From Pseudomonadota bacterium (GTDB taxonomy: Bacteria; Myxococcota; JACRCW01; JAFGSX01): a DNA stretch of 43,718 nucleotides. The notes beneath the pieces were generated by a model, which made no database searches, was not told where the DNA came from, and worked only from the letters and a program-made list of their open reading frames with translations. Position numbers and translations under genes: made by a program. The stretch is from positions 1 through 43,718 of the forward strand of contig JBDRCO010000138.1 of the NCBI GenBank assembly GCA_043821645.1. The letters are read 5' to 3'. Numbering within the stretch: the stretch's first letter is position 1; each line of letters starts with the position of its first letter. Shown piece after piece: positions 19,105 to 35,921 of this stretch.

Positions 19105-19933
19105 ACCAGCCCGCGCGCGGCACCGTCCAGGTGCGCGTGCACACGCAGAACCGAGGTCCCCGTTGAATGCAGATCGACATCTCCCGCTGGCTCCTGAGGA
19201 TCGCCCACTCCTTGTTCGATGCAACCAGCTCGTGGTGGGCTGGCAAGGCAAGCCCTTGCTTCCCCCCGTGGACCTCGGCATCCGCCAGGGCGATTTCTGG
19301 GCGGTGATCGGGCGCAACGGCTCGGGCAAGTCGACCTGGTTCAAGACTCTGCTGGGTCTAACGCCGCCCATCGCGGGCTCTGTGGACTGGGTGCGCACGG
19401 GTGTGGCGCTGTCCTACGTTCCGCAGCGCAACGACTTTGACCCGCTGTATCCGGCCACAGCCTGGGACGTGGTGACCATGGGCACACAACGCGGTCTTGG
19501 TTTTCTGTGGCCCCGCCATCCGCGTGCGGCCCGGGATCGCGTGGAGCGCGCCTTCGAGGCTGCCGAGGCCGTGGCTCTCAAGCACATGGCCTTTTGCGAC
19601 CTCTCCGAGGGTCAGAAGCAACGCGTGATGCTGGCGCGGGTTGTGGCGAGCGAGCCGGTGCTGGCCCTGCTCGACGAGCCCACCGCGGCCATGGACGTGC
19701 GGGCCGAGGAGGAAACCCTGCAGCTCATCGACCGCCTGCGACGTCAGTACAACATGGGGGTGGTCATCGTGAGCCACTTTCTTGGTGTGGCCGCGCGTTA
19801 CGCCGAGCACGTGATGCTCGTCGACAAGGAGCACCAGAGCGTGCGCGTGGGTCCCCCGGCAGAGGTGCTGAGCCACGTGGATTTTGCCACCGCCGAGGCC
19901 CTGGCCGAGGCGCGGGGAGAGGCCCAGCCATGA
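19091..19933 (+). CDS. znuC: Metal ABC transporter ATP-binding protein
   Basis: Walker A GRNGSGKST, YVPQR, signature LSEGQKQR, Walker B LLDEPT and H-loop VSH. Confidence 0.92.
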   Translation: MSTVEPARARHRPGARAHAEPRSPLNADRHLPLAPEDRPLLVRCNQLVVGWQGKPLLPPVDLGIRQGDFWAVIGRNGSGKSTWFKTLLGLTPPIAGSVDWVRTGVALSYVPQRNDFDPLYPATAWDVVTMGTQRGLGFLWPRHPRAARDRVERAFEAAEAVALKHMAFCDLSEGQKQRVMLARVVASEPVLALLDEPTAAMDVRAEEETLQLIDRLRRQYNMGVVIVSHFLGVAARYAEHVMLVDKEHQSVRVGPPAEVLSHVDFATAEALAEARGEAQP

Positions 19934-21369
19934 ACCCCGGCACAGCTATCAACTGGGCGAGCTTCGTCGAGGCACTGCCCGAGGTCTACCTGGCGCCCAT
20001 CGTCACCGGGGCTGCGGCCGGCGCTGTGCTGGGCTTTCTCGGCGTGTACGTCGTACTGCGGCGGCTGGTGTTCATCTCAGCTGCGCTGTCCCAGGTCTCG
20101 GGGCTCGGCGTCGCCCTCGCGTTCTACCTGCAGATCTATGCCGGGTGGCACGGGTTCTGGGGTGAGCCCGTGGTCATGGCCCTGCTGCTCTCCCTCGGTG
20201 CGACGCTGCTGGTCAGACCTGATCCGGCACACCTGCACCTGTCGCGCGACGCCATGCTCGGGCTGGTGTACGTCGTGGCCGGGGGCGTCGCTCTGTTTCT
20301 TGGCACCCGCATCTCGCAGGAGGCCCACGACATCAAGTCCATCCTCTTCGGCGTGGGTGTCGCGGTCCGCGACCTGGACCTCTGGCTCACCCTTGGCGTC
20401 GGTGGATCGATCCTGGCCGCGCACGTGGTCCTCGTTCGTGGGCTGGCCTCCGCGACCTTCGATCCGGTGAGTTCCCGGGTGCGCGGTATACCGGTCGGCG
20501 CGCTCGACACCTTCTTGTTCTTCTCCATCGCGGTGGCGGTCGCCATCACCACCCGGGCGCTGGGCGCGCTGCCGGTGTTCGGGTTCAGCGTGCTCCCCGC
20601 CATCGCGGCCCTGGCGCTGACCAGCCGACTCGGCCCGGCTCTCGTCGTCGCGGCGGGGGTTGGAGCCCTCTCTGGCGTGCTTGGTTATGTGTACGCCTTC
20701 TTCACGCGCTTCCCGGTCGGAGCCTCGCAGACCGTGATCGCGGGTGGAGTGGCTGCCCTAGCCATCGCGCTGCGCATGCTGCGCTCTCCGAACACCCCAG
20801 CGAGCTGGCGCGCCGGGGCAGGCCTGGGCGGTGTGCTGGTGATCAGCTTGACGCTGTGGCCCCTGGCTGGCACCTCCGGGGACAGCCCTGACGCGCACTC
20901 CGCGCACACCGATCACACCGCGTTGGTGGCCGACACCGGTGCAGGAGTTGCCGTGGGTCGCAAGGACCCGGCGGCCCTGCGTGCGTCGCTGCAGAGCTGT
21001 GCCGACGCCACCACCTGTGCCCGGCTCGCCCACGAGGCGGGCCACCTGGGAGACAGGGAGTCGGCGCCCCTGCTGGTGGGGCTGCTCGCCAATTCGGACT
21101 GGGGCGTCCGGGCCGAGGCCGTCGAGGCTCTGGGCAAGCTGGGCCGTGACGACGTGGCGGGTCCCCTCCTCGAGAGGCTGCAATCCGACGACAACCCGTG
21201 GGTGCGCGGCACGGCCGCCGAGGCCCTGGCTCGCGTTCATCTGCCTGCTGTGCGCAGCGCACTCGCCCAGGCGCGCAGCGTCGAGAAGGACCCGGACGTG
21301 CTGCAAGCCATCGCGCGTGCCCTCGAGCACCAGGACGCGTCGCCTCGGGCGCCATCTTCTGCGCCGTGA
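19930..21369 (+). CDS. znuB: Metal ABC transporter permease with a fused C-terminal HEAT-repeat domain
   Basis: GVYVVLRRLVF..AALSQ..GLG, ILFG, FD.....VRG and ALGAL motifs, then HSAHTDH and repeats of VR.EA.EALG.LG. Confidence 0.88.
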   Translation: MNPGTAINWASFVEALPEVYLAPIVTGAAAGAVLGFLGVYVVLRRLVFISAALSQVSGLGVALAFYLQIYAGWHGFWGEPVVMALLLSLGATLLVRPDPAHLHLSRDAMLGLVYVVAGGVALFLGTRISQEAHDIKSILFGVGVAVRDLDLWLTLGVGGSILAAHVVLVRGLASATFDPVSSRVRGIPVGALDTFLFFSIAVAVAITTRALGALPVFGFSVLPAIAALALTSRLGPALVVAAGVGALSGVLGYVYAFFTRFPVGASQTVIAGGVAALAIALRMLRSPNTPASWRAGAGLGGVLVISLTLWPLAGTSGDSPDAHSAHTDHTALVADTGAGVAVGRKDPAALRASLQSCADATTCARLAHEAGHLGDRESAPLLVGLLANSDWGVRAEAVEALGKLGRDDVAGPLLERLQSDDNPWVRGTAAEALARVHLPAVRSALAQARSVEKDPDVLQAIARALEHQDASPRAPSSAP

Positions 21370-21610: not shown

Positions 21611-21686
21611 CGTTACGTTCTTCTTTCGAGCCTCAGCTGGCCTGGCATGGCCAGTGCTCTGTGCTTCGCAGCACAGAGGTACCCCG

Positions 21687-21995
21687 ATGCCAGAAGAAGT
21701 CGAGAACCTGAAGACCAGCCAGAGCCGAGCCATGCTGGCCGCGGACATGCTTCGCGCCATCGCCCACCCGTCGCGGCTCCGAATCCTGGCCTTGCTGTGC
21801 GAGCGCGAGGAACACGTGAGTGCCCTGGCCGAGCTACTGGGCCTCAAGCAGGCCATCATCTCGCAGCAATTGCGCATCCTGCGCTCGCAGCGCCTGGTCG
21901 AGGTCAAGCGCGAGAACGGCTTCTCGTACTACGGGCTGGCGGAGCCGCGGCTCAAGGAGTTCATCCGCTGCGTCGAGGGCTGCACGGGGCACTGA
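21687..21995 (+). CDS. ArsR/SmtB family regulator, likely (per)sulfide-responsive
   Basis: LRAIAHPSRLRIL..LC, ISQQLRILR...LV...R....YY and a C-terminal CVEGC; heads a sulfur-metabolism operon. Confidence 0.9.
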   Translation: MPEEVENLKTSQSRAMLAADMLRAIAHPSRLRILALLCEREEHVSALAELLGLKQAIISQQLRILRSQRLVEVKRENGFSYYGLAEPRLKEFIRCVEGCTGH

Positions 21996-22033: not shown

Positions 22034-24262
22034 ATGCTGACCCGACGAGAGCTGTTCAAGTCTTCTGCGGTCCTGGCGACGGCGGGCCTGGCCACGGCGC
22101 AGGCTGGTCCTGCGCGGGCCTTCGGTCTGCTGCACACGCCCGAGGCCCTGCCGGCCGAGCGCGAGGTCCCCTCGGTGTGCGAGGTCTGCTTCTGGAACTG
22201 CGGCCTGATCGCGCAGGTGCGTGGCAACCGCGTGCTCGAGGTGCGGGGCCACCCGGACTACCCCAACGCCCGGGGCAAGCTGTGTGGGCGGGGCAACGCC
22301 GGACCCGGCTTCGTACGCGACAGCGATCGCCTCAAGTATCCACTGCGTCGCGTCGGCGAGCGTGGCGAGGCGCGCTTCGAGCGCATCGGCTGGAGCACCG
22401 CCTACGCACTGATCGCGGAGGGCTTCAACCGCATCAAGGAGCAACACGGGCCCGAGGCGCTGGCCCTGTTCTACCACGGCAAGGGCGGCCCCATGCTGCG
22501 CACCATGATGGCGGCGCTGGGCACACCCAACTTCGCTGCTCCGGCCTACGCCCAGTGCAAGGGGCCGCGCGACGTGGGCTACAAGCTGACCTTTGGCGAG
22601 ACCCTGTCCTCGCCCGAACCGCTCGACTTCGAGAACACGCGCTGCATGGTTCTGTTCGGCTCCCACCTCGGCGAGAATGCGCACAACAGCCAGGTGCAGG
22701 ATTTCGTCGCGGCGCGAGCGCGCGGGGCCAGGCTGATCGTGCTGGATCCGCGCATGAGCACCGCGGCCTCCAAGGCCGATGTCTGGATGCCGGTGCACCC
22801 GGGATCGGACACCGCGGTGATCCTGGCCTGGCTACACCTGCTCATCGCTCGTGAGCAGGTCGACCGGGTGTTTGTTGACACGCAGTGCCTGGGCTTCGAG
22901 CAGCTGGCCGAGCATGTGAAGCCCTTCACTCCGGAGTGGGCGGCCGAGCAGGCGAAGGTGCCCGCGGCCGAGATCGAGCGCGCCTACCAGCTCATCGTCG
23001 AGGCCAGGCCCGCGGTGCTGGTTCACCCTGGCCGCCACGTCACCTGGTACGGCGAGGCCGATACCCAGCGCGCCCGCGCCCAGGCCATCCTCAACGCGCT
23101 GCTGGGATCCTTCTGGCGTGAGGGCGGGACCTTTCGACCCTCGAGTGTGGAACTCGCCGACTTTCCGGGTCCGGATTTCCCCGAGACCAAGCCGGACGTC
23201 GACAGGGCAGCGGGCCGCTATCCCTTTGCCAAGGAGGTGTCGACGACGGGGATCCGTGACACCACGCGCTCGGGCGCGCCTTACCCCATCAAGGGCTGGT
23301 ACGTGCACGCGACCAACCTGATGCAGTGCATGCCCAACGTGCAGCACACCATCGAAGCCATACGCCAGCTTGACATGCTGGTGGTGTGCGACGTCATGCC
23401 GTCGGAGATCACGGCCTGGGCCGACGTGGTGCTGCCCGAGGACACCTACCTGGAGCGCTACGACGACCTGGCCGTGGGCGTGGGCAAGCGACCCTACATC
23501 GGCTTGCGGCAGCCCGTCGTCCAGTCCCCGTACGACACGCGGCCGGCCTGGCGCATGGCCAAGGAGCTGGGGACCGCGCTCGGCGTGGGGGACTTCTTCG
23601 CCTTCGACAGCATCGAGGAGTACCTGGGGGCACGGCTGCAGGGTTCGGGCACGACCCTCGATGAGCTCAAGAGCAAGGGGATTCACTTCGTCGATGCCAA
23701 GAACGCGCCCTACCTGGAACCCGATGCCGAGTTTCACTGGCACACGCCCTCGGGCAAGGTCGAGCTGTACAGCCAGCAGCTCGCCGACAAGGGCTTCTCG
23801 CCGCTGCCCGTTCACCTGCCTCCGCCAGAGCCGCCGGCGGGAACCATGCGCCTGCTGTACGGTCGCAGCCCGCTGCACACCTTTGGCCGCACCCAGAACA
23901 ACGAGACCCTGTTCGATGTGGACCCCAGCAACTGCGTGTGGGTCAACCCCTGCTGTGCCGAGAAGATGGGGCTGCGCCATGGGCAGGCGGTGATGGTGCA
24001 CAACGCGGACGGCGACGAGACCGGTCCCTTGCCCCTGCGCCTGACCGAGCGCGTGATGAAGGGCACTGCCTACATGGTGCACGGCTTCGGTCACCGCGCC
24101 CGGGGCCTGAGCCGCTCGTGCTGCCAGGGAGGAAGCGATTCCGATGTCATTCGCGCCTACGCGGTGGACCCCATCACCGGGGCCACAGGCATGCGGGTGC
24201 AGTTCGTGACCATCCGGGCCGCGGCACCGGGCGCGAAGGTGAAGCCATGCGCCATGCGATGA
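22034..24262 (+). CDS. psrA: Polysulfide/thiosulfate reductase catalytic molybdopterin subunit (PsrA/PhsA-like)
   Basis: Tat signal TRRELFK, 4Fe-4S motif CEVCFWNC...KLCGRG, DRLKYPL, Cys ligand in AQCKGPR, ADVVLPE.TYLER, H...RTQNN and HGFG. Confidence 0.88.
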   Translation: MLTRRELFKSSAVLATAGLATAQAGPARAFGLLHTPEALPAEREVPSVCEVCFWNCGLIAQVRGNRVLEVRGHPDYPNARGKLCGRGNAGPGFVRDSDRLKYPLRRVGERGEARFERIGWSTAYALIAEGFNRIKEQHGPEALALFYHGKGGPMLRTMMAALGTPNFAAPAYAQCKGPRDVGYKLTFGETLSSPEPLDFENTRCMVLFGSHLGENAHNSQVQDFVAARARGARLIVLDPRMSTAASKADVWMPVHPGSDTAVILAWLHLLIAREQVDRVFVDTQCLGFEQLAEHVKPFTPEWAAEQAKVPAAEIERAYQLIVEARPAVLVHPGRHVTWYGEADTQRARAQAILNALLGSFWREGGTFRPSSVELADFPGPDFPETKPDVDRAAGRYPFAKEVSTTGIRDTTRSGAPYPIKGWYVHATNLMQCMPNVQHTIEAIRQLDMLVVCDVMPSEITAWADVVLPEDTYLERYDDLAVGVGKRPYIGLRQPVVQSPYDTRPAWRMAKELGTALGVGDFFAFDSIEEYLGARLQGSGTTLDELKSKGIHFVDAKNAPYLEPDAEFHWHTPSGKVELYSQQLADKGFSPLPVHLPPPEPPAGTMRLLYGRSPLHTFGRTQNNETLFDVDPSNCVWVNPCCAEKMGLRHGQAVMVHNADGDETGPLPLRLTERVMKGTAYMVHGFGHRARGLSRSCCQGGSDSDVIRAYAVDPITGATGMRVQFVTIRAAAPGAKVKPCAMR

Positions 24263-25737
24263 TGATCGAGCTCGACAAGTGCATCGGCTGCCAGGCCTGC
24301 GTCACCTCGTGCAAGGAGCGCTGGGATTCGGGGCCGGGCGCCGCACGCGACTGGGTCATGACCTTCGAGCATGGCAACCGCGACGAGGGTGACCTTGGTG
24401 TCACCTTCTACCCGGGTCTGTGTAACCACTGCGACGATCATCCCTGCACGGCCGACTGCCCGACCGGCGCGACCTACATGACCGCGCAGGGAGTGGTCGT
24501 CGTCGACCCTGACGTGTGCATCGGCTGCGGCAACTGTGTGCCGGCCTGTCCATACGGCGCGCGTCACGCCGATCCGGTCAAGGGCATCGTCGAGAAGTGC
24601 AACTTCTGCGCACCCTACGTGGCTCGCGGCGAGCTGCCGGCCTGCGTGGCTACCTGCCTGGCGCAGTGCCGGCACTTCGGCGACCTCGACGACGAGCAGG
24701 GCGAGCTGGTGCAGCTCATTCGTGCGCGCAAGGCCAAGCCCCTGGTGACCAATGAGATCGACGTGCGCCCCAACATCTACTACGCGCCAGCCGAGCAACG
24801 CATGCAGGTGCTGGCGCAGGGCGTGGTGCGGCGCTACGGCTCGACGCTGTTCACGGAGGCCTGGCAGCAGGTGACGCGACCGCTGGCGCGCTGGGCCGTC
24901 GCGCCGGCCGTCGTCGTGACGGGCCTCGCCGGCATCGCCATCAACCTGCGCATGCGGCTGGCCGAGCGCCACCCGCACCCGGCTCCCGCTGCGAGCCCGG
25001 CCGTCAGCGCGCCTGGCGCGGCGTCCGACGCCACCTTGCCCCGGCACCCCCTGGGCATGCGCTTCTTGCACTGGTTCAACCTGCTGAGCTGGATCCTGCT
25101 GCTCGTCACCGGCACCTCGCTCATGGCCACGGCGGGCTTCGCCCTGTTCGGGCTGTCCCTGCCGCAGGCGGTGGCCTCGTGGTACGGCGGCAAGGCGAGT
25201 CTGATTTATTTTCATGCCGCCTGGGGTGTGCTGTGGGCCCTGATCATCGTGCCGCTGTTCATCTACTACAAGCGCGGCGGCATCGAGGCCCTGCACGAGC
25301 TGTGGCCGAGCGGCGACGATCTGCGCTGGCTGCTCGCCAAGCCGCTGGTGATGCTCGGCATCTGGGGTCATGACCGGCTACCGCCGCAGGACAAGTACAA
25401 CTTTGGCCAGAAGGCCTTTGCCATCACGGCACTCGTCGGCACTGCTCTCATCATCGTCAGCGGCGCGGTCATGACCTTTCACCTCGGCGACGCGAGCGTG
25501 GTGCGCAGCGCCATCCTGGTCCACAAGCTGGCCATCCTGCTGGCCCTGCTGGGCATCGCGGTGCACGTCACCATGGCTGCCATCCTGGTCGAGGAAAGGC
25601 CGGCGCTGTGGGCCATGATCATGGGGCAGATCGACCGCCGCCACGCCGAGTTGCACAGTGCCAAGTGGGTTGCCGAGCTCGAGCGCCGACGCCAGCTGGA
25701 CAGGCGCCACGGTGACCACAGCGAAGGAGGAGTCTGA
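24247..25737 (+). CDS. Fused 4Fe-4S subunit (PsrB/PhsB-like) and di-heme cytochrome b membrane anchor (PhsC/FdnI-like)
   Basis: CIGCQAC..SC, CNHC..HPC..DCP, CIGCGNC..ACPY and KCNFC. These are followed by R.LHW, FHAAWG, PQDKYNFGQK and H...HV.MA cytochrome b helices in one frame. Confidence 0.87.
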   Translation: MRHAMMIELDKCIGCQACVTSCKERWDSGPGAARDWVMTFEHGNRDEGDLGVTFYPGLCNHCDDHPCTADCPTGATYMTAQGVVVVDPDVCIGCGNCVPACPYGARHADPVKGIVEKCNFCAPYVARGELPACVATCLAQCRHFGDLDDEQGELVQLIRARKAKPLVTNEIDVRPNIYYAPAEQRMQVLAQGVVRRYGSTLFTEAWQQVTRPLARWAVAPAVVVTGLAGIAINLRMRLAERHPHPAPAASPAVSAPGAASDATLPRHPLGMRFLHWFNLLSWILLLVTGTSLMATAGFALFGLSLPQAVASWYGGKASLIYFHAAWGVLWALIIVPLFIYYKRGGIEALHELWPSGDDLRWLLAKPLVMLGIWGHDRLPPQDKYNFGQKAFAITALVGTALIIVSGAVMTFHLGDASVVRSAILVHKLAILLALLGIAVHVTMAAILVEERPALWAMIMGQIDRRHAELHSAKWVAELERRRQLDRRHGDHSEGGV

Positions 25738-25738
25738 G

Positions 25739-26248
25739 ATGCCCAAGCCGTACTGGAACCCCTACGTCGCCGGGATTGCCCTGGGACTGGTGTTGCTCGC
25801 GAGCTTCGTGGTCACGGGCAAGGGCCTGGGCGCGAGCGGGGCGGTCAAGCACATCGACGCGGCTGTGCTGCACGCGGCCAATCCAACCTGGGCCGAAGAG
25901 AACGCCAACATCAAGGGCTACTTTGCGCCGGACCATGGACCGTTGAGCGACTGGATCGTGTTCCTGGCGCTGGGCGTGGCCATCGGTGGTCTGACTGGCT
26001 CCATCTCGGCCCGCCGCTTCAAGGTCGAGACCGTTCGTGGTCCGCGCATCCAAGGCGATCTGCGCTGGCTGCTGGCCCTGGCCGGGGGCGTGCTCAGTGG
26101 CGTGGCGGCGCAGATCGCACGCGGCTGCACCAGTGGCCAGGCGCTGAGCGGGGGGGCGCAGCTCGCGCTCGGAAGCTGGGTGTTCATGTTCGCGGTGTTC
26201 GGCGGCGCCTACGCAGTCGCCTACTTCGTGCGCAAGGAATGGATCTGA
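25739..26248 (+). CDS. YeeE/YedE-family sulfur-compound transporter (half)
   Basis: YWNPYVAGI.LG, GLGASG and A.GCTSGQALSGG motifs. Confidence 0.88.
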   Translation: MPKPYWNPYVAGIALGLVLLASFVVTGKGLGASGAVKHIDAAVLHAANPTWAEENANIKGYFAPDHGPLSDWIVFLALGVAIGGLTGSISARRFKVETVRGPRIQGDLRWLLALAGGVLSGVAAQIARGCTSGQALSGGAQLALGSWVFMFAVFGGAYAVAYFVRKEWI

Positions 26249-26299: not shown

Positions 26300-26923
26300 A
26301 TGGAGGCAGCCGTGGAGTTTCCCCTGGTGATCGGTCTTCACATGGATCACGCCACCGAGCTGGTCGTGGCCGTGCTGGTCGGCGTGGGCTTCGGCTTCTC
26401 GCTGGAGCGAGGAGGTTTTGGTCGCGCCGACAACATGGCGGCGATCTTCTACGGACGTGACTTCCGGGTGATGCGCGTGATGTTCACTGCCATCGTCACC
26501 GCCATGCTCGGCCTGTACTTCCTGGACCTGGCGGGCGTCATGCCCATCGGCAACATCGGCTTGCTGCCCACCTATCTGGTGCCGCAGCTCGTCGGCGGAC
26601 TGCTGCTCGGAGCGGGCTTCGTCATCGGTGGCTACTGTCCGGGGACCTCGATCGTGGCCAGCATGAGCGGCAAGATCGATGCGCTGTTCTTTGTCGGTGG
26701 GCTGTTCGCCGGCACCTTGCTTTTCACCATGGGCTACAGCGCCATCGAGAAGTTCCATGGCAGCACCTTCCTCGGCCGGGTGCTGCTCCATGAATATCTC
26801 GGCATTCCGTCGGGCGTGATGGTCCTGGCCGTGGCGCTGTTCGCGGTTGGTGCCCTGTACGCCGTGGCGCGCATCGAGCGCGTGGTCCGGGCCCACGTGG
26901 TGGCCCAGGAGGGCAAGGCATGA
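26300..26923 (+). CDS. YeeE/YedE-family sulfur-compound transporter (half)
   Basis: G.GFGF.LERGGF, DF.VM.VMFTAI and GGYCPGTS motifs. The start may be the GTG at 26312. Confidence 0.88.
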   Translation: MEAAVEFPLVIGLHMDHATELVVAVLVGVGFGFSLERGGFGRADNMAAIFYGRDFRVMRVMFTAIVTAMLGLYFLDLAGVMPIGNIGLLPTYLVPQLVGGLLLGAGFVIGGYCPGTSIVASMSGKIDALFFVGGLFAGTLLFTMGYSAIEKFHGSTFLGRVLLHEYLGIPSGVMVLAVALFAVGALYAVARIERVVRAHVVAQEGKA

Positions 26924-27576
26924 CACGCTTCAACGCGACGATCGCGAGCGGCGCGCTGATCGGGCTGGCTGCTGTCTACATGGTGATTGCCCTGGCCACG
27001 GGGCATTCGGCGAGAGCAGAGCCACCCCCGGACCTGAGTGCCAGAGGGGCAGGGCTCGACGTGTGGAAGACCCTGGCACTGCTCATCGATCAGGGTGACC
27101 AGGTGCGCTTCATCGACGTGAGGCCGGCGGAGCAGTTTCAGCTCTACCACGTCGCCGGTTCCCGCTCTCTGCCCGGAGCCGGTGCCTCAGAGCTGCGCTC
27201 GGTGCTCGCAGGAGCTCAGGCCGGTGTGCTGATCGCCAGCTCCGACGAGCAGGCCGCCAGGTTGGTGGGGGAGGCAAGCGCGGGTCAGACCTCACCGAAC
27301 CTGCACTTCCTGCAGGGTGGCGTTCAGGGCTGGTACCTGGCGCTCGAGCTGCCGGTTCCCCTGTTTGCGGACAAGGAGCCCCCACACGGCTATGCCGAGG
27401 CCATGAGGGTGCTGAGAAGCTGGCTGGACGGCGACACAGCCCAGGTCGATCGCACGAGGGTGCGCGAGGCCGTGGGGACCCTGGCCACCGCGGGCTACGA
27501 CCCGAGCCAGCTGGCCGGCAAGAAGAAAAAGCCGGCGGCCAGTGGCAAGAAGAAGATCAGCGGCGGCTGCGGCTAA
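26920..27576 (+). CDS. Membrane-anchored rhodanese-like protein with a C-terminal Lys-rich arm ending in GGCG
   Basis: N-terminal hydrophobic helix, IDVRP..QF..YHVAGS and LQGGVQGW rhodanese motifs; ends KKKKPAASGKKKISGGCG. Confidence 0.8.
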   Translation: MTRFNATIASGALIGLAAVYMVIALATGHSARAEPPPDLSARGAGLDVWKTLALLIDQGDQVRFIDVRPAEQFQLYHVAGSRSLPGAGASELRSVLAGAQAGVLIASSDEQAARLVGEASAGQTSPNLHFLQGGVQGWYLALELPVPLFADKEPPHGYAEAMRVLRSWLDGDTAQVDRTRVREAVGTLATAGYDPSQLAGKKKKPAASGKKKISGGCG

Positions 27577-27621: not shown

Positions 27622-29037
27622 TCAGCCTCCGTCGACGACGTGAAGGCGCACCCGCAGCGTCCCATCCTTGGCGCAGCGCGCCCTGAGTTGCCGCCCGTCG
27701 AGGTCGACGCGGTCGAGTTGCCCTGCGGGTTCGACGTCGAGCTGCCAGGCACTGGAGCCCGGCAGCAGCCATTCCATGTGTGCGCCGGCGCGACAGTCGA
27801 GCTCGAGGCTCCAGGACGGTGGGGTCAGCGTGGTGGAGACCTCGCGCATCCTCGACGGCAGGACGGAAGGCGTGGGCAGGTTCGCACTGTGATCAAAGAC
27901 AGGCAGCCGGTGGCCCTCGCCGTCGACAAAGGCAAAGCCCTCGGTGCCACGGGCGTAGACCCACAAGGCACTGCCCAGCCCCTGCTCGAGGACAAGGGTG
28001 GTCAGATCCTCGACGTACTTCTCGAAATTCGGTCCGCTGGTCAGACCGCCCCACTCGCCAAGCCACAGCGCCTGCCCCTCGTCGAGGTAGGGATCGAACA
28101 GATGCCCGAACATGTCGCGCAGACCCTGCCGGTCGCCGTCGTAGCCTTGCTCGGGTTCGTGCACCGAGGCCGGGTAAAAGTGCGGGGCCAGGACCACCCG
28201 CGTGCGGTCCCTCTCCTCGATGACGAGGCGATCCGCCAGGCCAAGGTCGTAGGCTCGGGAGGGTTCGAGGAAGAACAGCCGACCCGGACAGACGTCTTCC
28301 ACCGCATCCATCAAGGGTTGGTAAAAGCGGCGGTACAGCACGGCCTGGTCAAACCGCATCACTCCGAGGCTGGTGCCGGGCCAGGGCTCGTTGAGGAGGT
28401 CAAAGCCCACTACCGCGGACACATCGCACACGGCTGTGGCCACCTCGACCCAGGCACGGGTGAGTTCGGCGCGCAGGGGAGCATCGGTCCACAGCAGGTC
28501 GAAGCAGGCCGATACCTGGGGCGACAGGTAGTTGAGCCACCAGGGGCTGGTGGCCTCGTAACCCCGCGTCAACTCCTCGGGGCAGGCCCAGGCAGGTGCG
28601 CCGTCGCCAAAGGGCGCGCCCCACAGGTCCTGGTGCAGGTCGATGACGACGCGCAAGCCGGCGGAAGTCAGCCGCTGCACCTCGCTGCGCAGTCGTCGCA
28701 GGTAGTCGTAATCGATGCGCTCGCGCTCAGGCTGCACCGCGTCCCAGAAGGTCAGCAGGCGCACGCTGTTGAAACCGCTGTCGAGAAGCACAGCGATCTC
28801 GTCGTCACCAAGGGGGATCAAGCGGTCGGGGTGGCCCTTGGCCTCTCCGCGCAGGTTGATGCCCCGCAGCAGCAACACCTGACCCTGGCTGTCGACGATC
28901 GCACCCTCGTGCACCGAATAGCGCGGGGGCTGCTCTGGCGCCGGGGTAGCGCAGCACAGCGCGACCAGGCTCAGCAGACTCGCGGACACATGGCACCGTA
29001 CGCGACGCCCGCACGGTCTTAAGAGACGCCAGTTCAC
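27622..29037 (-). CDS. Glycoside hydrolase family 5 (endoglycoceramidase-like)
   Basis: LLRGIN, GFNSVRL..FW..VQP, VIDLHQD, GDGAP.W, GFDLLNEP (acid/base), APHFY and GEWG (nucleophile). The GTG start overlaps the upstream stop (GTGA). Confidence 0.88.
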   Translation of the reverse strand: MNWRLLRPCGRRVRCHVSASLLSLVALCCATPAPEQPPRYSVHEGAIVDSQGQVLLLRGINLRGEAKGHPDRLIPLGDDEIAVLLDSGFNSVRLLTFWDAVQPERERIDYDYLRRLRSEVQRLTSAGLRVVIDLHQDLWGAPFGDGAPAWACPEELTRGYEATSPWWLNYLSPQVSACFDLLWTDAPLRAELTRAWVEVATAVCDVSAVVGFDLLNEPWPGTSLGVMRFDQAVLYRRFYQPLMDAVEDVCPGRLFFLEPSRAYDLGLADRLVIEERDRTRVVLAPHFYPASVHEPEQGYDGDRQGLRDMFGHLFDPYLDEGQALWLGEWGGLTSGPNFEKYVEDLTTLVLEQGLGSALWVYARGTEGFAFVDGEGHRLPVFDHSANLPTPSVLPSRMREVSTTLTPPSWSLELDCRAGAHMEWLLPGSSAWQLDVEPAGQLDRVDLDGRQLRARCAKDGTLRVRLHVVDGG

Positions 29038-32000
29038 CGGGCTGGACACCGGCGGCGGCGAACTCGGGCAAGCAGCCCGAGCAGTGCCAGCACCGCAGTG
29101 GGAGGGCCATGCGCCTGACCGCAACTACAACCCGCACCGACCCGCGCGACAGAGGGTGGGCTCCTGTCCACGCCAACCGGTCCGTCCTCGCCGCTGGTGG
29201 CAGCATCCTGCGCCGCACTGGTGTCGACGGTCGCCGTGGCATCTGCGCGCACGTCCGCGGATGCGGTGTCCATGGCGAAATGATCCGCCGTCCCATGATC
29301 TGCTGACCCGAGATCTGCTCCGCCGCTGTCCTGCTGCATCGCGTCCGTGGCCGCGGTCGCATCCCCATTGCTGGTGCCGTCTGTCGCGGTCAGGTCCAGG
29401 CTGGCGCTATCCGTGGCTGCAGCGTCCTGGCCGTTGCCATCCCCCGCGACATGGTCTGTGCCGCTGGCATCGCTGGTCGCGGCATCTATGGTCGTGGTCC
29501 CGTCTGCGCCAGCGCCATCCGAAGGTGTCGCATCGAATGCGCCGGTGTCGGCAGCGCCCGCATCACTGCCTGGCGCAGAGTCGGTCGAGGTGGCGTCGGC
29601 AGCCGGCCCTCCGTCGACGGGCGGGCAGTTCGCAATGGGCGAGTGAGTGCACAGGTGTCCGTTGCCACAAAGGTCGAGAGTGCAGGGATCGCTGTCCGCG
29701 CACTCGCTGGCAAAGCTGCAGCAGTCGGGGGTGGCGGTCTCGACGCAGCGGCCACTTGTGCAGGCCAGGGTGACGCAGGGATTGAGCGAGCTGCAGTCGG
29801 TGGCGAACTCGCAGCAGTTCGCGATCGGGAGCCATCGACACACGTTGTTGGTACACAGATCGCTGGTGCAGCTATCGCCATCGCTGCAGTCCGCGCCGGT
29901 GTTGCAGCACCCGAGCTGCGACAGGTGGCTGCACGTCCCGCTATTGCAGCTGTCCTGGGTGCAGAGGTCTCCGTCGTCACAATCCGGTGCGCTGCGGCAA
30001 CAGTCCGGAGTCCAGGCGTGACCGCAGCGCCCATCGGGGGCACCAATGCAGGCATCGCTGGTGCAACCATTGGCATCGTCGCACTCGCCATCGCCATTGC
30101 AGCAGCCTGCGGCGGGGTGGCTGCAGCTGGCGCCGGGTGTCAGGCACAGATCCAGGTTGCAGTCGTCCGCATCGGTGCAGTCCAGGGCGCTGGTACAGCA
30201 GGAGGCGATGGCCGTGTGCTCGCACTGTCCGGTGACGCAGGCATCGCTGGTGCAGGGATCGCCGTCCTCGCAGGGGTCGCCATTTTGGCAGCAGCCCGTC
30301 GTGGGCACGTGTCGACACACGCCGGTGGGTGCACAGCTGTCCGTGGTGCAGCTGTTGCCGTCGTCGCAGGTCCCACTGCTGCAGCTGGCGATGAGCACGC
30401 TGTGTGGCACGCTGCTGGTGCTGTTGCCTGCCGAGTCGGTCGCGCGCGCAGCCACGCTGTGCGTCCCCGCGCTCAGGTCGACGAAGCAGCTGGCCAGGCT
30501 CCAGGGCGAGCACTCGCGCTGCACGGCGCCGTCTACCAGGAGCTCCAGACTGCTCAGGCCGCAGCCGGCGTCGCTGGTCGACAGGGCCACCTGGACCACA
30601 CCCTCGGCTACGGTGGCACCTGCCTGCGGGACATCCATCGCCAGCAGGGGCGGCGTGTTGTCAAAGCGCACGTTCAACAGCTCGCTCAGGCAGCTGTGAG
30701 CAGCGCCGTCGTGTGCCTGCAGCTGCAGGGTATGGGTGCCGTCCGCAAGCTGCGTGGTGTCGAGGGAGATCTGGGCGGGGACACTGGCCGCGCTGCCGCG
30801 AGCGGTGCCGTCGACCAGCAGGGTCACACCGGTGATGCCGACATCGTCGAAGCCGTCGGCCTGCACGGTCACGCTGCCGCGCAGGCAGGCGAAGGCGTCA
30901 GCCGGTGAAATCAAAAATATTCCAGGCAGGTCGGACACAACACGCACCACCACCAGCACGGTGCTGTCGTAGTCCTGGCCACCGGAGTGCACCCGGATCT
31001 GGAGCTGGTGCGGCCCTGCGCTCCAGGTGCTGGCGTCCAGCAACACGCTCTGGGCGCCCTCACCGTTGCCGCTCCCCCCGACCCCACCCCCGGACAGGGG
31101 AGGGGGCAGCGGGCTGGGCTGGATCGCGACGCCGTCGAGCAGGAGGTCTGCACTGGCGCCGGAGGCGGCGCCAAAGATCATGTAGCTCAGCTCGAACATT
31201 GGACCCACTGCGCTCCAGCCTGGCGGTGCCTGGATGTAGATCGAGGGGTCCTGCACTCGGGGAACCTCTGCCTCGACCGTGACCGTGGCCGGAGCCGAGC
31301 TGCCCAGGTTCTGCGCCACGTCCACGGCCTCGGCCGTGACCACGTGTGTGCCGAGGCTGACGGTGGTGCTGTCCCAGATGCCAGAAAGACTCGAGCGACC
31401 AAAAACAGCGACCACGGGGTCACCGTCGACTCGCACCACCATGCGCTCGATGTCACCAGGAGAGCCACTGACCTGGGCGCTGATGCTGACCTTGCCCGCG
31501 ACCTGGCTGCCGTCGGTGGGTGCGCCGAGCATGACCACAGGTGGGGTGGTGTCGCTGTGGTTGGTGGTGCCAAAGGCGACGGCAAGGCTGGGCCTGGCGT
31601 GGCCCGCGGCGTCGCCCGCGATCACCTGCAGGCTGTGCGCGCCGTCGGCCAGCATCCGGGTGTCGAAGGACAGGCTGGCGGAGGTGGACGAGGTGGTGAC
31701 CGCGCCCCGGAACACGCCGTCGATCTCGAAGGCCAGGTCGGTGGGTGCAAAGTCGTCGTCATAAAGCACGGCGCTGAATGCGGTGACGCCGGCCAGTACG
31801 GCCCCGTCGGCGGGTGCGCTGATCACGGCCCAGGGTTCGGCGTAGTCCACGCCGGTGCGGCGCTCGTGCAGGATGTCGTGCACCGTGCGCTGGCACACCG
31901 GGCAGGTCGCCACGTTGCCATTCGAGCTCATCAGGCAACCCGAAGCCGAGCGGTACAGGCCGGTGGCGCAGTACACGGCGCCCTGCACGCAGCCCGCACC

Positions 32001-32711
32001 TGGGGTGCTCTGGAACTTGGTGCAACTCGGATCCGCGGTGGCGTTGCGACTGCGCACCAGGGCGGCCTCGGTCTTGGCGTGGCACAGCCCGCTCTCGATG
32101 TACTCGTCCTCGAGCCGGAAGATCGCGTGCCCCAGCTCGTGGCTGGTGGGAGCCAGGCTGCGGCTCATGCGCACCCGGCCGCCCGAGGCCAGCTGCGCAG
32201 GAAAACTGGCATTGGCGCGACCCGAGCTGCTGTTGGCGATGGCGATGACCACGTCGACGTCCGGGGCGTTGAGCGCCGCCTGGGACACGCGACCGTCGAG
32301 GGCAGTGATGAAGCTGCCTCCGACGTTCATGCCCAGGGCTGTGTCCGCGGTATCGGCGTCACCAACCTCGGTGCTCGCCGAGGCCACGTCGATCACGTGG
32401 AAGTTGTAAATGGCTGGCACGCCGCCGTACAGGCCGGTGGCGGTCTGGGTCTTGAACGTGTTGATGGCGCTGGCCGCGACTGCATGCCAGCCGTCCTGGT
32501 CCACGCCGCCGCCAAAGCGAAAGCCGTCGCCCACCAGCACCACGTCGATGGCCATGTCCAGATCCGGCTGCTCGATGGTGCTCTGCACAGTCAGGTTGCA
32601 CAGCTCGGGTGTGGTGATGCAGTCCGCGGCCGCGGCCGCAGGCAGCACGCAGGTACCGACAGCCGTCGCCAGCAGCAGTGGCCAGCGAGAACTGCTCGCC
32701 GCGGGCCTCAC
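29034..32711 (-). CDS. Secreted M64-family metallopeptidase with Ig-like (Big) domains, Cys-rich repeats and a MYXO-CTERM-like anchor
   Basis: IDVVLVGDGF, HELGHAIF.LEDEY, GLYRS..GCLM and CPVC. Repeated DG.H.L...A.D.AG Ig units, CDDG..CT.D.C repeats, and a tail GCSC...LLGLLARVRRRR. Confidence 0.87.
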   Translation of the reverse strand: MRPAASSSRWPLLLATAVGTCVLPAAAAADCITTPELCNLTVQSTIEQPDLDMAIDVVLVGDGFRFGGGVDQDGWHAVAASAINTFKTQTATGLYGGVPAIYNFHVIDVASASTEVGDADTADTALGMNVGGSFITALDGRVSQAALNAPDVDVVIAIANSSSGRANASFPAQLASGGRVRMSRSLAPTSHELGHAIFRLEDEYIESGLCHAKTEAALVRSRNATADPSCTKFQSTPGAGCVQGAVYCATGLYRSASGCLMSSNGNVATCPVCQRTVHDILHERRTGVDYAEPWAVISAPADGAVLAGVTAFSAVLYDDDFAPTDLAFEIDGVFRGAVTTSSTSASLSFDTRMLADGAHSLQVIAGDAAGHARPSLAVAFGTTNHSDTTPPVVMLGAPTDGSQVAGKVSISAQVSGSPGDIERMVVRVDGDPVVAVFGRSSLSGIWDSTTVSLGTHVVTAEAVDVAQNLGSSAPATVTVEAEVPRVQDPSIYIQAPPGWSAVGPMFELSYMIFGAASGASADLLLDGVAIQPSPLPPPLSGGGVGGSGNGEGAQSVLLDASTWSAGPHQLQIRVHSGGQDYDSTVLVVVRVVSDLPGIFLISPADAFACLRGSVTVQADGFDDVGITGVTLLVDGTARGSAASVPAQISLDTTQLADGTHTLQLQAHDGAAHSCLSELLNVRFDNTPPLLAMDVPQAGATVAEGVVQVALSTSDAGCGLSSLELLVDGAVQRECSPWSLASCFVDLSAGTHSVAARATDSAGNSTSSVPHSVLIASCSSGTCDDGNSCTTDSCAPTGVCRHVPTTGCCQNGDPCEDGDPCTSDACVTGQCEHTAIASCCTSALDCTDADDCNLDLCLTPGASCSHPAAGCCNGDGECDDANGCTSDACIGAPDGRCGHAWTPDCCRSAPDCDDGDLCTQDSCNSGTCSHLSQLGCCNTGADCSDGDSCTSDLCTNNVCRWLPIANCCEFATDCSSLNPCVTLACTSGRCVETATPDCCSFASECADSDPCTLDLCGNGHLCTHSPIANCPPVDGGPAADATSTDSAPGSDAGAADTGAFDATPSDGAGADGTTTIDAATSDASGTDHVAGDGNGQDAAATDSASLDLTATDGTSNGDATAATDAMQQDSGGADLGSADHGTADHFAMDTASADVRADATATVDTSAAQDAATSGEDGPVGVDRSPPSVARVGAGCSCGQAHGPPTAVLALLGLLARVRRRRCPAR
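29640..30385 (-). repeat. About seven Cys-rich protein repeats (CC....C.D...CT.D.C....C.H)
   Basis: Visible in the translation of the M64 protein. Confidence 0.75.
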
Positions 32712-33360: not shown

Positions 33361-34080
33361 TCACTTCTCGTCCTCGACCATGGGCACGCGGCCGCCGCGC
33401 GCTCGCAGCATGTGCAGCTCGGTGCCGCCCCACACGGTCATGGCATCCAGGTGCCTGCCCTTGGGCACCACGGTCATGGCAGCCACCACGGCGCCCTCGC
33501 CCAGGGTGACGCCGGGAAAGATCGCGGTGTCGCGGCCAATGGTGCAGCTCTTGCCGATGTGCACCGGCGCCATCTTCAGCAGGCCCTTCTCGCCGACGTG
33601 GGCCAGGATCACGGCGTCGTCGCCCACCATCACCTCGTCCTCGATGGTGATCAGGTCCCAGTCGCCGATGGCGGTGGTGTTGATGATGACGCCACGGCCG
33701 ATGCGCGCGCCCAGCATGCGGAAGTACACGTTGAGGTAGGGCGTGCCGCGGATCTGCTTGAGAAAGAAGAAGCAGGCCATGTCGTGCAGCTGCGCGGTCA
33801 GGGCCCACATCACCACACGGAAGCTGAAGAAGGGGAACTCGCCTGCGCGCGCACGATACAGCGAGCCCCACTTGATCAGCACCACCAGCAGCGCCAGGTC
33901 CACGCCGAACACGAAGTAGGCCGGGCCCGCGCCCAGCACCGCTGCCCACCACCCGAACTGCCCGGCCCAGCGCACCAGCAGCGTCGCCGGAAGGAGCGCC
34001 ACGCCAAGGATGGCGCCTTTGAGCAGCCACAGCAGGGGGATCAAGGTGACGGCCAGGAGGTTGTACAAGAAGCGCATCAT
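33361..34080 (-). CDS. Membrane-associated hexapeptide-repeat (LbH) acyltransferase-like protein
   Basis: N-terminal TM helices, GTPYLN.YFRMLGARIG, LITIED.VMVG, PVHIGK.CTIG and IFPGVTLGEGAVV. Confidence 0.85.
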   Translation of the reverse strand: MMRFLYNLLAVTLIPLLWLLKGAILGVALLPATLLVRWAGQFGWWAAVLGAGPAYFVFGVDLALLVVLIKWGSLYRARAGEFPFFSFRVVMWALTAQLHDMACFFFLKQIRGTPYLNVYFRMLGARIGRGVIINTTAIGDWDLITIEDEVMVGDDAVILAHVGEKGLLKMAPVHIGKSCTIGRDTAIFPGVTLGEGAVVAAMTVVPKGRHLDAMTVWGGTELHMLRARGGRVPMVEDEK

Positions 34081-35921
34081 GCGCGGTCACCGGTTTCCGT
34101 GAGCAGGTCCAGCACCCTGTTGTACTTGCCCATGGGCACCGACAGCTGCACGCCCTGCACCAGAGGCCGCACGGCCTGCAAGATCTCTCTGGCCACCAGC
34201 AAGCCTTCCTCGCGCGCCCGGGCCTGGTCCTCGGCCCTGGCCATGCGCGCCATGATGTCGTCGGGCACGAAGGCGCCAGGCACCTCGTTGCGCATGAACT
34301 CGGCGTTGCGCAGGCTGGTCAGGGGCCAGATGCCGGCCAGCACCGGCACACGGCAGTGGCGCGTGCGGGTGAGAAAACTCTCGAGCTGCGCCACGTCGAA
34401 CACGGGCTGGGTGATGGCATACTCGGCACCGGCCTCGACCTTGTACTCGAAGCGCCGGATCTCGTGATCCAGCTTCAGCGCCCCCGGGTTGACGCCCACG
34501 CCGAAGACGAAGCCGGTCTGGCCGCCTATGGCGTTGCGCGCCACGTCGAGGCCGTGGTTGAGCCAGTTGACGATGTGAGTCAGGCCGATGGCGTCGACGT
34601 CGAAGACCGCGGTGGCGTCGGGGTAGTTGCCCAGCTTGGGTGGGTCGCCGGTGATCAGCAGCAGGTTGTGAATGCCCAGGGCCGAGGCGCCGAGCAGATC
34701 GCTCTGAATGCCCAGCAGGTTGCGGTCGCGGCAGGTGTAGTGCAGCACCACCTCGATGCCCACCTGCTGCTGGATGAGCACACCCAGGGCGAGCGGGCTC
34801 ATGCGCGCACTGGCGCGGGGCCCGTCGGGTATGTTGATGGCGTCGACCTGCTTGGCCACGGCGCGCACACCCTGGATCACCTTCTCGACGTTGGGGCCGC
34901 GCGGTGGCGTGAACTCCACCAGGGTGACGAACTCACCCGCGTCGAGCTTGCGGCCCAGGTTGGAGCGCTCGGCCAGGGGCAGGGGATCGCGGGCATCCTG
35001 CAGATCACCCACCGCGATCTGGCCCGTGTGACCGCGCTGCGGCTGCAGGGCGCGCACCGCGTTGCGCATGGCGCGGATGTAGGCTGGCGTGGTGCCGCAG
35101 CAGCCGCCCAGCACGTGCACGCCCGCGGCCACGAAGCGCTTGGCGTACTCGGCAAAGTACTCGGGGCTGGACATGTACAGGTTGCGGCCCTCGACCGCCC
35201 GCGGCACACCCGCGTTGGGCTGGGCGGACAGCGGCGCATTGCACACCAGCACCATGCGCTCGATGGCGGCCAGGGTGGGCTCGGGACCCACCGAGCAGTT
35301 GATGCCCACGACGTCGGCGCCCCATTTTTCGAGCACCACGGCGCAGCGTTCGGCCGGTGCGCCCTGAATGGTGTGGCCGGTCTCGTCGACGGTGATCTGG
35401 GCCACCACGGGCAGGTCGCAGACCTCGCGCGCGCCGCGCAGGGCCTGCTGCAGCTCGGTCAGGTCGCCAAAGGTCTCGAACACCAGCAGGTCCACTCCGC
35501 CCTCGACCAGGGCCTCGATCTGGGCGCGAAAGTAATCCCGCGCCTCGTCGACGCTGGTCGGACCCAGGGGCTCGATCTTGAGGCCCAGCGGGCCCACCGC
35601 CCCGGCCACCAGCGCGCGATCCCCGGCAGCATCGCGGGCGATCCGCGCCCCGGCCAGGTTGATCTCGCGCAGCCTGTCGGCCAGGCCAAAGGGCTTGAGC
35701 TTGATCGGGTTGGCGCCGAAGGTGTTGGTCTCGATGACGTCGGCGCCGGCGGCCACGTACTCCTCATGAATGTTCTTGATCAGCTCGGGGCGAACCAGGT
35801 TGAGCTCGTCGTAGCAGGTGTTGATGAACACGCCCTTGCTGTACAGCATGGTGCCCATGGCGCCATCGAACAGCACCACGCCGGACTTGATCTTGTTGCG
35901 AAACCTATCAGCGCCGGACAT
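34077..35921 (-). CDS. yitJ: Bifunctional homocysteine S-methyltransferase / methylenetetrahydrofolate reductase
   Basis: DGAMGT, AGADVIETNTFGAN, GINC, PNAG.P and GGCCGT. MTHFR half: NIPDGP, H.TCRDRN, TGDP and ITQPVF. Confidence 0.92.
   Translation of the reverse strand: MSGADRFRNKIKSGVVLFDGAMGTMLYSKGVFINTCYDELNLVRPELIKNIHEEYVAAGADVIETNTFGANPIKLKPFGLADRLREINLAGARIARDAAGDRALVAGAVGPLGLKIEPLGPTSVDEARDYFRAQIEALVEGGVDLLVFETFGDLTELQQALRGAREVCDLPVVAQITVDETGHTIQGAPAERCAVVLEKWGADVVGINCSVGPEPTLAAIERMVLVCNAPLSAQPNAGVPRAVEGRNLYMSSPEYFAEYAKRFVAAGVHVLGGCCGTTPAYIRAMRNAVRALQPQRGHTGQIAVGDLQDARDPLPLAERSNLGRKLDAGEFVTLVEFTPPRGPNVEKVIQGVRAVAKQVDAINIPDGPRASARMSPLALGVLIQQQVGIEVVLHYTCRDRNLLGIQSDLLGASALGIHNLLLITGDPPKLGNYPDATAVFDVDAIGLTHIVNWLNHGLDVARNAIGGQTGFVFGVGVNPGALKLDHEIRRFEYKVEAGAEYAITQPVFDVAQLESFLTRTRHCRVPVLAGIWPLTSLRNAEFMRNEVPGAFVPDDIMARMARAEDQARAREEGLLVAREILQAVRPLVQGVQLSVPMGKYNRVLDLLTETGDRA

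Follow-up and report, generated by a model that had tools for sequence, protein, structure and literature searches.

What can a rhodanese without its catalytic cysteine be doing at the very end of a gene cluster for the handling of sulfur compounds, and why should its only cysteine sit at its extreme C-terminus? The question is raised by a stretch of 43,718 nucleotides (contig JBDRCO010000138.1 of GenBank assembly GCA_043821645.1, called the window throughout) from a bacterium deposited as Pseudomonadota and placed by GTDB in the Myxococcota. Here, genes for a regulator, a molybdoenzyme, an iron–sulfur protein fused to cytochrome b, two YeeE halves (YeeE1 and YeeE2) and finally the protein of interest, which we call P0001, follow one another on the forward strand (Table 1). 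Our answer, for which we would put the probability at roughly 60%, is that P0001 belongs to a split YeeE channel as its carrier subunit and faces the periplasm, a SoxY-like swinging-arm sulfur carrier that would serve a Phs-type reductase in this organism.

P0001 has 218 residues, and its ATG overlaps the stop codon of the upstream YeeE2 gene as ATGA; its third-position guanine-plus-cytosine content (0.82) is similar to that of other genes in the window. Pfam finds one rhodanese domain (PF00581) at residues 52-139, which scores 28.0 bits where the cut-off is 22.2, and an AlphaFold2 model built from the family alignment, with a mean predicted local distance difference test score (pLDDT) of 78.4, sets this alpha/beta fold behind an N-terminal membrane helix, which we read as an uncleaved N-in signal anchor. 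As means over blocks of 10 residues, pLDDT in the domain is mostly 87-95 (78 for residues 121-130); two more helices are predicted beyond the rhodanese fold, at 158-169 and 178-190, and the score falls below 50 at residues 200-210 and 213-218, so that the tail is predicted to be disordered. When the model was compared with the PDB using Foldseek, every listed match contained a rhodanese-type fold, including those of a Cdc25-like arsenic/antimony reductase, the rhodanese-like domain of USP8 and the MAPK-binding domain of MKP7. Neither Pfam nor NCBIfam provides a model for the whole protein or for its tail, a phmmer search of the PDB with P0001 alone gave a single weak rhodanese match (1yt8, E 6.9e-4), and tblastn against the PLSDB plasmids gave none. 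We also considered a cleavable Sec signal peptide, as the ARA-EPPP of P0001 might suggest, and rejected it as a general feature, since most relatives have no AxA site and the helix is internal in eight fused forms.

How general is a protein of this kind? Our genome scan was seeded with YeeE2, the YeeE half directly upstream, which is better conserved than P0001, and used flanks of 10 kb; it returned 59 loci (numbered with an L below) from at least six phylum-level groups, namely Acidobacteriota, Bacteroidota, Calditrichota, Melioribacteraceae, Anaerolineales and Lysobacterales. Of these, 57 are evaluable, the contig stopping short of the next gene in L016 and L041, and in 55 of the 57 YeeE2 is succeeded by a tail-bearing rhodanese or joined to one in a fusion. 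The remaining two, L046 (10560-11300) and L057 (10590-11400), were examined as tail-less exceptions and rejected as such: in both, the rhodanese gene is frameshifted with a GGC(E) end readable in another frame and the module otherwise intact, and because the contigs resemble long-read assemblies, sequencing indels are as likely an explanation as pseudogenes. The homologues are about 200-240 residues long, or make up the last 215 or so residues of fusions of 397-413, and they share a common build, with an N-terminal hydrophobic helix, a rhodanese-like core and an end reading GGC, GGCG, GGCE or [KR]GC[ST]. Alignment A1, which holds P0001 and the 55 loci (56 sequences), is a divergent one, identity to P0001 being 12-20% for 54 of the 55 and 54% for L001. 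Its invariant columns are D66, R68, G134, G216 and C217, with G215 conserved in at least 90%; rhodanese homology domains are marked by (I/V)D(V/L)R and GG..W motifs. All 56 sequences have the tail cysteine as their final or penultimate residue, within a core that reads GGC in 52 and [KR]GC in four, and as it is encoded by both TGT (29) and TGC (27), its conservation acts at the protein level. The first-pass annotation of this locus had named conservation of the GGC tail and synteny with yeeE as points on which its reading could be checked; the cysteine turns out to be kept in 55 of 55 intact homologues and in both frameshifted copies, and the synteny is universal across the sampled loci. A phmmer search with P0001 against all open reading frames of the loci gave 22 matches at E up to 0.01, so that most homologues are recognised by position, alignment and Pfam and not by pairwise similarity. 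Direct Pfam confirmation of the rhodanese domain covers P0001 and six members of A1, namely L050 and five fused forms (L010, L012, L020, L024 and L032), and the identity of the remainder rests on A1 and its profile matches. Pfam also confirms the domain in three tandem second paralogues that lie outside A1 (L015 11250-11885, L022 11250-11885 and L012 11226-11813), each with a membrane helix, a Cys-less rhodanese and a basic tail ending GGC. As a further observation, L001, the nearest relative of the window operon, is labelled Acidobacteriota.

The cysteine that one expects in such a fold is consistently absent. In the active-site loop of P0001, VLIASSDEQAA, the canonical catalytic position is occupied by S107, as set by a profile alignment that lays the family 'lys' on the 'lyC' of the active rhodanese 6mxv and by the spacing to the conserved G-Y. 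Across A1 this column holds Ser in 36 sequences, Ala in 11, Gly in eight, Asp in one and Cys in none, and L030 and L040 carry a Cys one residue before it; with its catalytic cysteine replaced, P0001 stands outside the active sulfurtransferase rhodaneses of the GlpE, PspE and Sud type. The family profile matched 67 rhodanese sequences of the PDB at E up to 1e-3, headed by 1yt8 and 6mxv and then by the Cys-less Alr3790 domain, and all four domains of 1yt8 match it, most strongly two with Cys-less loops. The sole cysteine of P0001 is C217, in the terminal ISGGCG, which is preceded by GKKKKPAASGKKK; lysine makes up seven of the last 19 residues. Since the catalytic cysteine is missing from 56 of 56 sequences, the tail cysteine is the only conserved thiol of the family. 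The first-pass annotation had described a membrane-tethered rhodanese fold without a cysteine in its loop and with a lone one in ISGGCG behind a Lys-rich stretch, and on each of these points our analysis agrees with it: the fold by Pfam, AlphaFold2 and Foldseek, the tether by the predicted helix, and the distribution of cysteines by the translation and the alignment.

What, then, does this protein work with? The two genes directly upstream encode adjacent half-size Sulf_transp proteins with one conserved cysteine each, and are as such a split YeeE. YeeE1 (169 residues) carries Cys130 in an invariant RGCTSG and YeeE2 (207 residues) Cys113 in an invariant GG[FY]CPGT. The YeeE1 profile (A2) aligns to residues 237-327 of the S. 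thermophila protein, StYeeE, where the RGCTSG cysteine falls on C293, and the YeeE2 profile (A3) aligns to residues 4-178 (E 0.0057), its conserved cysteine matching that of the N-half GGC; in other loci, Sulf_transp coverage of YeeE2 extends to profile positions 183-189. The split YeeE channel is the constant partner of the tail-bearing rhodanese, and a sulfur-compound reductase is a frequent companion, not an obligate one. In eight loci YeeE2 and the rhodanese are a single protein, and the ESM Atlas holds a cluster of 6489 members around 399-residue Sulf_transp plus Rhodanese proteins, as well as a 686-residue form; automatic names of the type 'Rhodanese-like/Sulphur transport domain-containing protein' indicate that the domain pair is already known to databases. 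Because the fusions had made binding likely in any case, a complex prediction for YeeE1, YeeE2 and P0001 adds little: its ipSAE (interaction prediction score from aligned errors) was 0.45 against 0.01 for the best control, which is rated 'weak support', on a mark that is reached by 58 of 80 solved complexes and two of 110 mismatches, scores of 0.60 or less among them belonging to seven of the 80 and to both mismatches. At least 86% of contacts were common to the runs, with a partner pLDDT no lower than 66.

On which side of the membrane would the arm lie? Passages of the crystal-structure paper PMC7449682 place the N-terminus of StYeeE outside and its C-terminus inside, with helix H7 flipping the topology of the two halves, and identify C293 as the cysteine of the outer thiosulfate site. 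Since YeeE2 spans H1-H7, its C-terminus should be inside and the rhodanese helix should lead out. The fused forms make the same point, as the linker between the last YeeE2 helix and the helix of the rhodanese part is only about 10 to about 20 residues long, and mostly net positive, so that the latter must run from inside to outside. In the 56 sequences the 15-residue flanks of the helix have a mean net charge of +1.68 on the N side and -0.05 on the C side, the N side being the more positive in 46, equal in four and less positive in six; the hydrophobic helix itself precedes the domain in 55 of 56, including the eight fused forms, the exception being L054, whose open reading frame has a doubtful start. 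In addition, the partner enzymes are exported, the molybdoenzyme of the window carrying a twin-arginine translocation (Tat) leader, and the neighbour in Marinilabiliales-type loci is a lipoprotein with tandem rhodaneses that keep both catalytic cysteines. From all of this we infer that domain and arm lie in the periplasm, on the same side as the Tat-exported molybdoenzyme.

The upstream genes of the window describe a respiratory enzyme of recognisable type. The best NCBIfam model for the molybdopterin subunit is PhsA, at 461 bits and under the equivalog cut-off of 694, and the anchor of the enzyme is of cytochrome b type, as in Phs; the iron–sulfur protein fused to that anchor matches TtrB, DsrO and formate dehydrogenase gamma, all under cut-off, and the fusion, which runs through an extra hydrophobic segment, has the same arrangement in L001. 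The regulator, with cysteines at residues 49, 106 and 110, scores 56.4 bits against the BigR model (under its cut-off of 155) and is reminiscent of persulfide-sensing BigR/SqrR-type repressors, so persulfide may be what it senses; in L010, an ArsR-rhodanese fusion and a thioredoxin stand where the window has its regulator. Across the 59 loci, whose context was read by tblastn with representatives and checked with Pfam or NCBIfam in 13, a quinol-linked periplasmic reductase lies directly upstream in 31: PsrA-PsrB-NrfD in 18 (two of them cut by contig ends), PhsA-PhsB-cytochrome b in five, and an octahaem cytochrome with cytochrome b561 in eight. In 26 loci, of Marinilabiliales type, there is no adjacent reductase, and in two (L030, L040) the upstream DNA is too short to judge. 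The octahaem loci (L010, L012, L020, L023, L024, L027, L032 and L055, with these genes upstream of position ~9400) are exactly the eight in which YeeE2 and the rhodanese are fused. Three of the eight octahaem proteins (L010, L012, L024) match TIGR04315, a tetrathionate-reductase family, at 535-601 bits against a cut-off of 375, and in L032 a multihaem cytochrome fused to cytochrome b (919 residues) reaches 35.5 bits, under cut-off. The first-pass annotation had proposed a relay of sulfur between the YeeE pair and the molybdoenzyme, with psr synteny as a check. The YeeE half of that proposal is upheld, the channel being constant; the molybdoenzyme half does not generalise, as Psr or Phs genes are upstream in just 23 of 59 loci. 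Natural fusions nonetheless chain the parts together, from PhsB-cytochrome b through cytochrome b-YeeE1 to YeeE2-rhodanese, and the cytochrome b561-YeeE1 fusion, found in four loci, physically ties a quinol site to the sulfur channel.

The reductase-free loci have neighbours of their own. Most of the 26 encode, downstream, a membrane-anchored rhodanese-like protein of 146 residues with neither a Cys arm nor a Pfam match (11149-11586 in L050, a locus of Draconibacterium orientale DSM 25947). Convergent to it stands a gene for a lipoprotein (lipobox LISC; L050 11619-12659, reverse strand) in which the catalytic cysteine is retained by each of two rhodanese domains, and a truncated globin gene is close by. 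Elsewhere, L004 has genes for an SQR/FCSD-like flavoprotein, a DUF1641 protein and a DsrE-like protein directly behind the module (11384-14180), which suggests sulfide or sulfane-sulfur handling beyond the channel.

How might such a carrier work? We picture the single N-in helix tethering a catalytically dead rhodanese scaffold beside the YeeE1/YeeE2 heterodimer, where the disordered basic tail with its invariant Gly-Cys end would work as a swinging arm. Its thiol would bind sulfane or oxidised sulfur covalently, in the form of a persulfide, polysulfide or thiosulfonate, and the arm would carry this load between sulfur enzymes of the periplasm and the channel's outer mouth, at the invariant YeeE1 cysteine equivalent to C293; in the window, the periplasmic enzyme would be the Tat-exported molybdoenzyme of Phs/Psr type, which is connected to the quinol site of a cytochrome b. 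That sulfur is carried covalently, which partners the arm has and in which direction transfer runs are what we infer from sequence and context. Thiols are known to react with tetrathionate. The octahaem enzyme Otr uses this compound, according to passages of PMC11237559, and a Psr homologue is reported with it as substrate (PMC12949373), so with both upstream reductase types reported to act on it, tetrathionate becomes a candidate cargo beside polysulfide and thiosulfate. Other published fragments are in keeping with the idea: Li et al. 2024 (PMC11582611) in one passage call a relay from the SoxY arm cysteine into the YeeE-like SoxT 'conceivable', the split YedE1E2 is stated in PMC10812762 to import zero-valent sulfur and to require both its cysteines, and psr operons encode periplasmic rhodaneses, as a passage of PMC12142623 has it.

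Several observations count against a carrier role of this kind. The loop residues are S-N-G-D in the family and S-S-D-E in P0001; none of them is basic, in contrast to the loops with which active rhodaneses bind anions, and the domain itself therefore probably does not bind sulfur anions, in P0001 or in its relatives. The 26 of 59 loci without an adjacent reductase mean that the link to a molybdoenzyme is not general. The charge of the tail is not conserved either, tails in the Marinilabiliales-type loci (our class C) having equal counts of acidic and basic residues, and a lone cysteine in the periplasm might just as well enter a disulfide. H7 is placed inside YeeE2 by a weak alignment (E 0.0057), and the complex score, being 'weak support' only and returned with no contacts, gives no indication of where the arm might dock. 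Finally, a sample gathered through YeeE2 cannot show tail-bearing proteins that occur away from YeeE.

The disulfide may be considered in its own right. The terminal cysteine might be a structural or regulatory partner, bonded to a second copy of the protein or to the outer YeeE1 cysteine, and so either hold the subunit in place or act as plug and gate of the channel in response to periplasmic redox. The periplasm, where we place the domain, is a compartment in which lone thiols oxidise readily, the YeeE1 cysteine is invariant and at an outer position, and the tandem paralogues with the same tail in L012, L015 and L022 make pairs possible. A static disulfide, however, has no need of a long disordered arm or of the Gly-Gly surroundings that typify swinging arms, and substrate handling better fits the recurrent association with sulfur-compound reductases and with active rhodaneses of the periplasm; we consider the disulfide unlikely, and would add that gating and carrying by the arm cysteine are not mutually exclusive. 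A different cargo is also conceivable: selenide or selenopersulfide would be bound by the arm cysteine in the service of a YedE-like channel, and a selenium oxyanion would be the substrate of the PsrA-like enzyme. Both YeeE halves do weakly match the NCBIfam models YedE/FdhT and seleno_YedE, far under cut-off, family members weakly match a 'rhodanese-related (seleno)protein' and the selenoprotein TsoB, and the regulator weakly matches TsoR, again under cut-off. But all such matches are far below the curated thresholds, the best models being thiosulfate and tetrathionate enzymes, and neither selenocysteine nor a selD context was seen in the scanned loci, which makes selenium or another chalcogen a distinctly unlikely substrate; the mechanism of the carrier would be the same either way.

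Could we have the domain on the wrong side of the membrane? In the cytoplasm it might stand in for YeeD or TusA and be the acceptor at the inner side of YeeE, which does require a Cys-bearing YeeD on the cytoplasmic side, according to passages of PMC11582611 and PMC13047784, and no Pfam TusA/SirA-like match was found in the proteins submitted from 13 loci, which are part of their gene calls. Nevertheless, the nearly universal helix before the domain, the inside end that YeeE2 already has by its homology to H1-H7, the positive-inside count favouring N-in in 46 of 56 and the export of the partner enzymes combine to make a cytoplasmic acceptor very unlikely. We would go further still for the suggestion that the GGC end is a signal for processing, sorting or lipid attachment, whose cysteine has no redox role. 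The motif is strictly C-terminal, conserved and preceded by basic residues, as one might wish of such a signal; yet no sorting or modification enzyme is conserved nearby across the four context classes, the protein is already anchored in the membrane, and the zero or one residue after the cysteine would be unusual for a cleavage signal, all of which renders this extremely unlikely. Weak matches to MoeZ/MoeB rhodanese domains brought a ThiS/MoaD-like GG C-terminus to mind as well; it was rejected, as the protein ends in Cys or in Cys plus one residue and the domain would lie outside the cell.

The preferred reading, that of a periplasm-facing arm carrying sulfur for YeeE, invites comparison with several known systems. 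SoxY ends in GGCGG, with its cysteine followed by two glycines that have no counterpart in the P0001 family, where the cysteine is last or second-last. What the two have in common is a single cysteine, in P0001 the only thiol, in a Gly-Gly-Cys at a flexible C-terminal end; in P0001 this end is predicted to be disordered and would be periplasmic, as it is in SoxY, and its cysteine may be similarly reactive. They differ in that P0001 has a rhodanese fold and a membrane anchor, and a reductive or uptake context instead of Sox oxidation. A 'VTIGGC' hallmark and a swinging arm are given for SoxY in passages of PMC11237559. There is no match of P0001 to the SoxY Pfam family at E up to 0.01, its model matches rhodanese-type folds only, and none of SoxZ, SoxXA and SoxB was found by Pfam and NCBIfam among the eight window proteins scanned around it. 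The SoxY-like arm on a different scaffold that the first-pass annotation had proposed is thus to be narrowed: the GGC tail and its disorder are there, and the likeness is one of arm, not of fold. Sud of Wolinella succinogenes (PDB 1qxn), a periplasmic polysulfide-sulfur transferase that serves polysulfide reductase, is likewise a single rhodanese domain, and the family profile matches it at E 1.7e-7. Sud is soluble and uses its canonical active-site cysteine, however, whereas the P0001 family has no such cysteine in 56 of 56 sequences, keeps its thiol on a C-terminal arm, is anchored and is tied to YeeE. YeeD/TsuB, a TusA-like protein, resembles P0001 as a small Cys-bearing partner that adjoins YeeE/TsuA or is fused to it (as in PDB 8j4c, a YeeE-YeeD fusion), but YeeD/TusA-type proteins have their cysteine in a CPxP-type loop, and P0001 has another fold, with no Pfam or NCBIfam match to TusA/SirA, a cysteine on a terminal arm and, presumably, a place on the opposite, periplasmic side. 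PmpAB and YedE1E2 also consist of two half-size Sulf_transp proteins with one invariant cysteine each, and the two cysteines of the window correspond to C293 and C91, as a passage of PMC11582611 has it for PmpA and PmpB; the window halves are longer (169 and 207 residues against about 130), YeeE2 keeps H7, and halves of the window type come with a tail-bearing rhodanese, often inside reductase operons. The inactive rhodanese domains of Alr3790 and 1yt8 give the best profile matches and have the Cys position substituted, and they differ, judged by PDB names, in having no compensating C-terminal Cys arm or anchor described. P0001, in short, belongs to the non-catalytic rhodanese homology superfamily; it is SoxY-like in its arm, would be Sud-like as a rhodanese that serves a polysulfide reductase, and is a member of neither group.

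Why should any of this matter? To the question of how channels of the YeeE, SoxT and PmpAB type obtain sulfur on the outside, the P0001 family brings a candidate donor that is dedicated and genetically hard-wired, and that occurs in lineages ranging from Acidobacteriota and Bacteroidota to Chloroflexota. It would represent a rhodanese scaffold whose reactive thiol has left the active-site loop for a C-terminal arm, and it physically ties YeeE channels to respiratory thiosulfate, polysulfide or tetrathionate reductases. In our full-text search of the literature, no description came to light of a rhodanese that lacks the catalytic cysteine, ends in a Cys arm and is encoded beside YeeE. There is, of course, a bolder version, to which the gene fusions point and which we hold only tentatively, as less likely than not: the quinol-oxidising anchor (cytochrome b or NrfD), the periplasmic reductase (Psr/Phs or octahaem), the split YeeE and the tethered Cys arm might form one membrane machine, in which carrier-bound respiratory sulfur reduction is coupled to import. 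The substrate would then be held covalently on the arm, in a Sox-like but reductive manner, for example as Cys-S-S-SO3 from tetrathionate or Cys-S-Sn from polysulfide, and the sulfur left after reduction would pass straight through YeeE to the cytoplasm. If true, this would be the first identified periplasmic donor for YeeE-type channels.

Table 1. Coordinates of P0001, its parts, the neighbouring genes of the cluster and a related fusion (positions refer to the window unless a locus is named)
Feature	Position	Strand	Evidence
ArsR/SmtB-type regulator, BigR-like, first gene of cluster	21654..21995	+	Pfam HTH_5 46.6 bits; NCBIfam HTH_metalloreg 73.5 bits (cut-off 55)
PhsA/PsrA-like molybdopterin catalytic subunit, twin-arginine leader MLTRRELF...	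22034..24262	+	Pfam Molybdopterin, Molydop_binding, Molybdop_Fe4S4
PhsB-like 4Fe-4S subunit fused to cytochrome b561 (FdnI/PhsC-type) anchor	24247..25737	+	Pfam Fer4_11 52-146, Ni_hydr_CYTB 266-459
YeeE1, half-size YeeE, C-terminal half of full-length YeeE	25739..26248	+	Pfam Sulf_transp profile positions 176-309
YeeE2, half-size YeeE, N-terminal half plus central helix H7	26300..26923	+	Pfam Sulf_transp profile positions 1-160, DUF6691
P0001, membrane-anchored Cys-less rhodanese with C-terminal GGCG arm	26920..27576	+	Open reading frame call, Pfam, AlphaFold2, Foldseek, alignment A1
N-terminal membrane helix of P0001, residues 6-27	26935..27000	+	AlphaFold2 helix 6-27; hydropathy 2.27 over 19 residues
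Rhodanese-fold domain of P0001, residues 40-142	27037..27345	+	pLDDT, Foldseek; Ser107 codon 27238-27240 in catalytic-Cys place
Disordered (predicted) Lys-rich tail of P0001, residues 200-218, ending GGCG	27518..27573	+	pLDDT; Cys217 codon 27568-27570
Cytochrome b561-YeeE1 fusion, 456-466 residues, Acidobacteriota	L018 8589-9959; L019 974-2341; L029 8571-9968; L031 8619-9989		Pfam on three

A few further genes of the window may be recorded here. Upstream of the cluster lies a gene for a metal ABC-3 permease that carries HEAT repeats as a C-terminal fusion (19930-21369, forward strand), and a gene for a zinc/manganese-type substrate-binding protein (16756-17676) lies upstream of it in turn. Downstream of P0001, on the reverse strand, come ordinary housekeeping genes of sulfur-amino-acid and Fe-S metabolism (34077-35996 and 40001-42363): one for a bifunctional homocysteine S-methyltransferase/methylenetetrahydrofolate reductase, whose 756 bits exceed the cut-off, and a pair for NifS and NifU. 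Between these and P0001, also on the reverse strand (29034-32711), lies the gene for a secreted-looking protein of 1225 residues with many Cys-rich repeats and no NCBIfam match, whose C-terminal end (GAGCSCG, a hydrophobic stretch and RRRR) resembles a sorting tail of MYXO-CTERM type.

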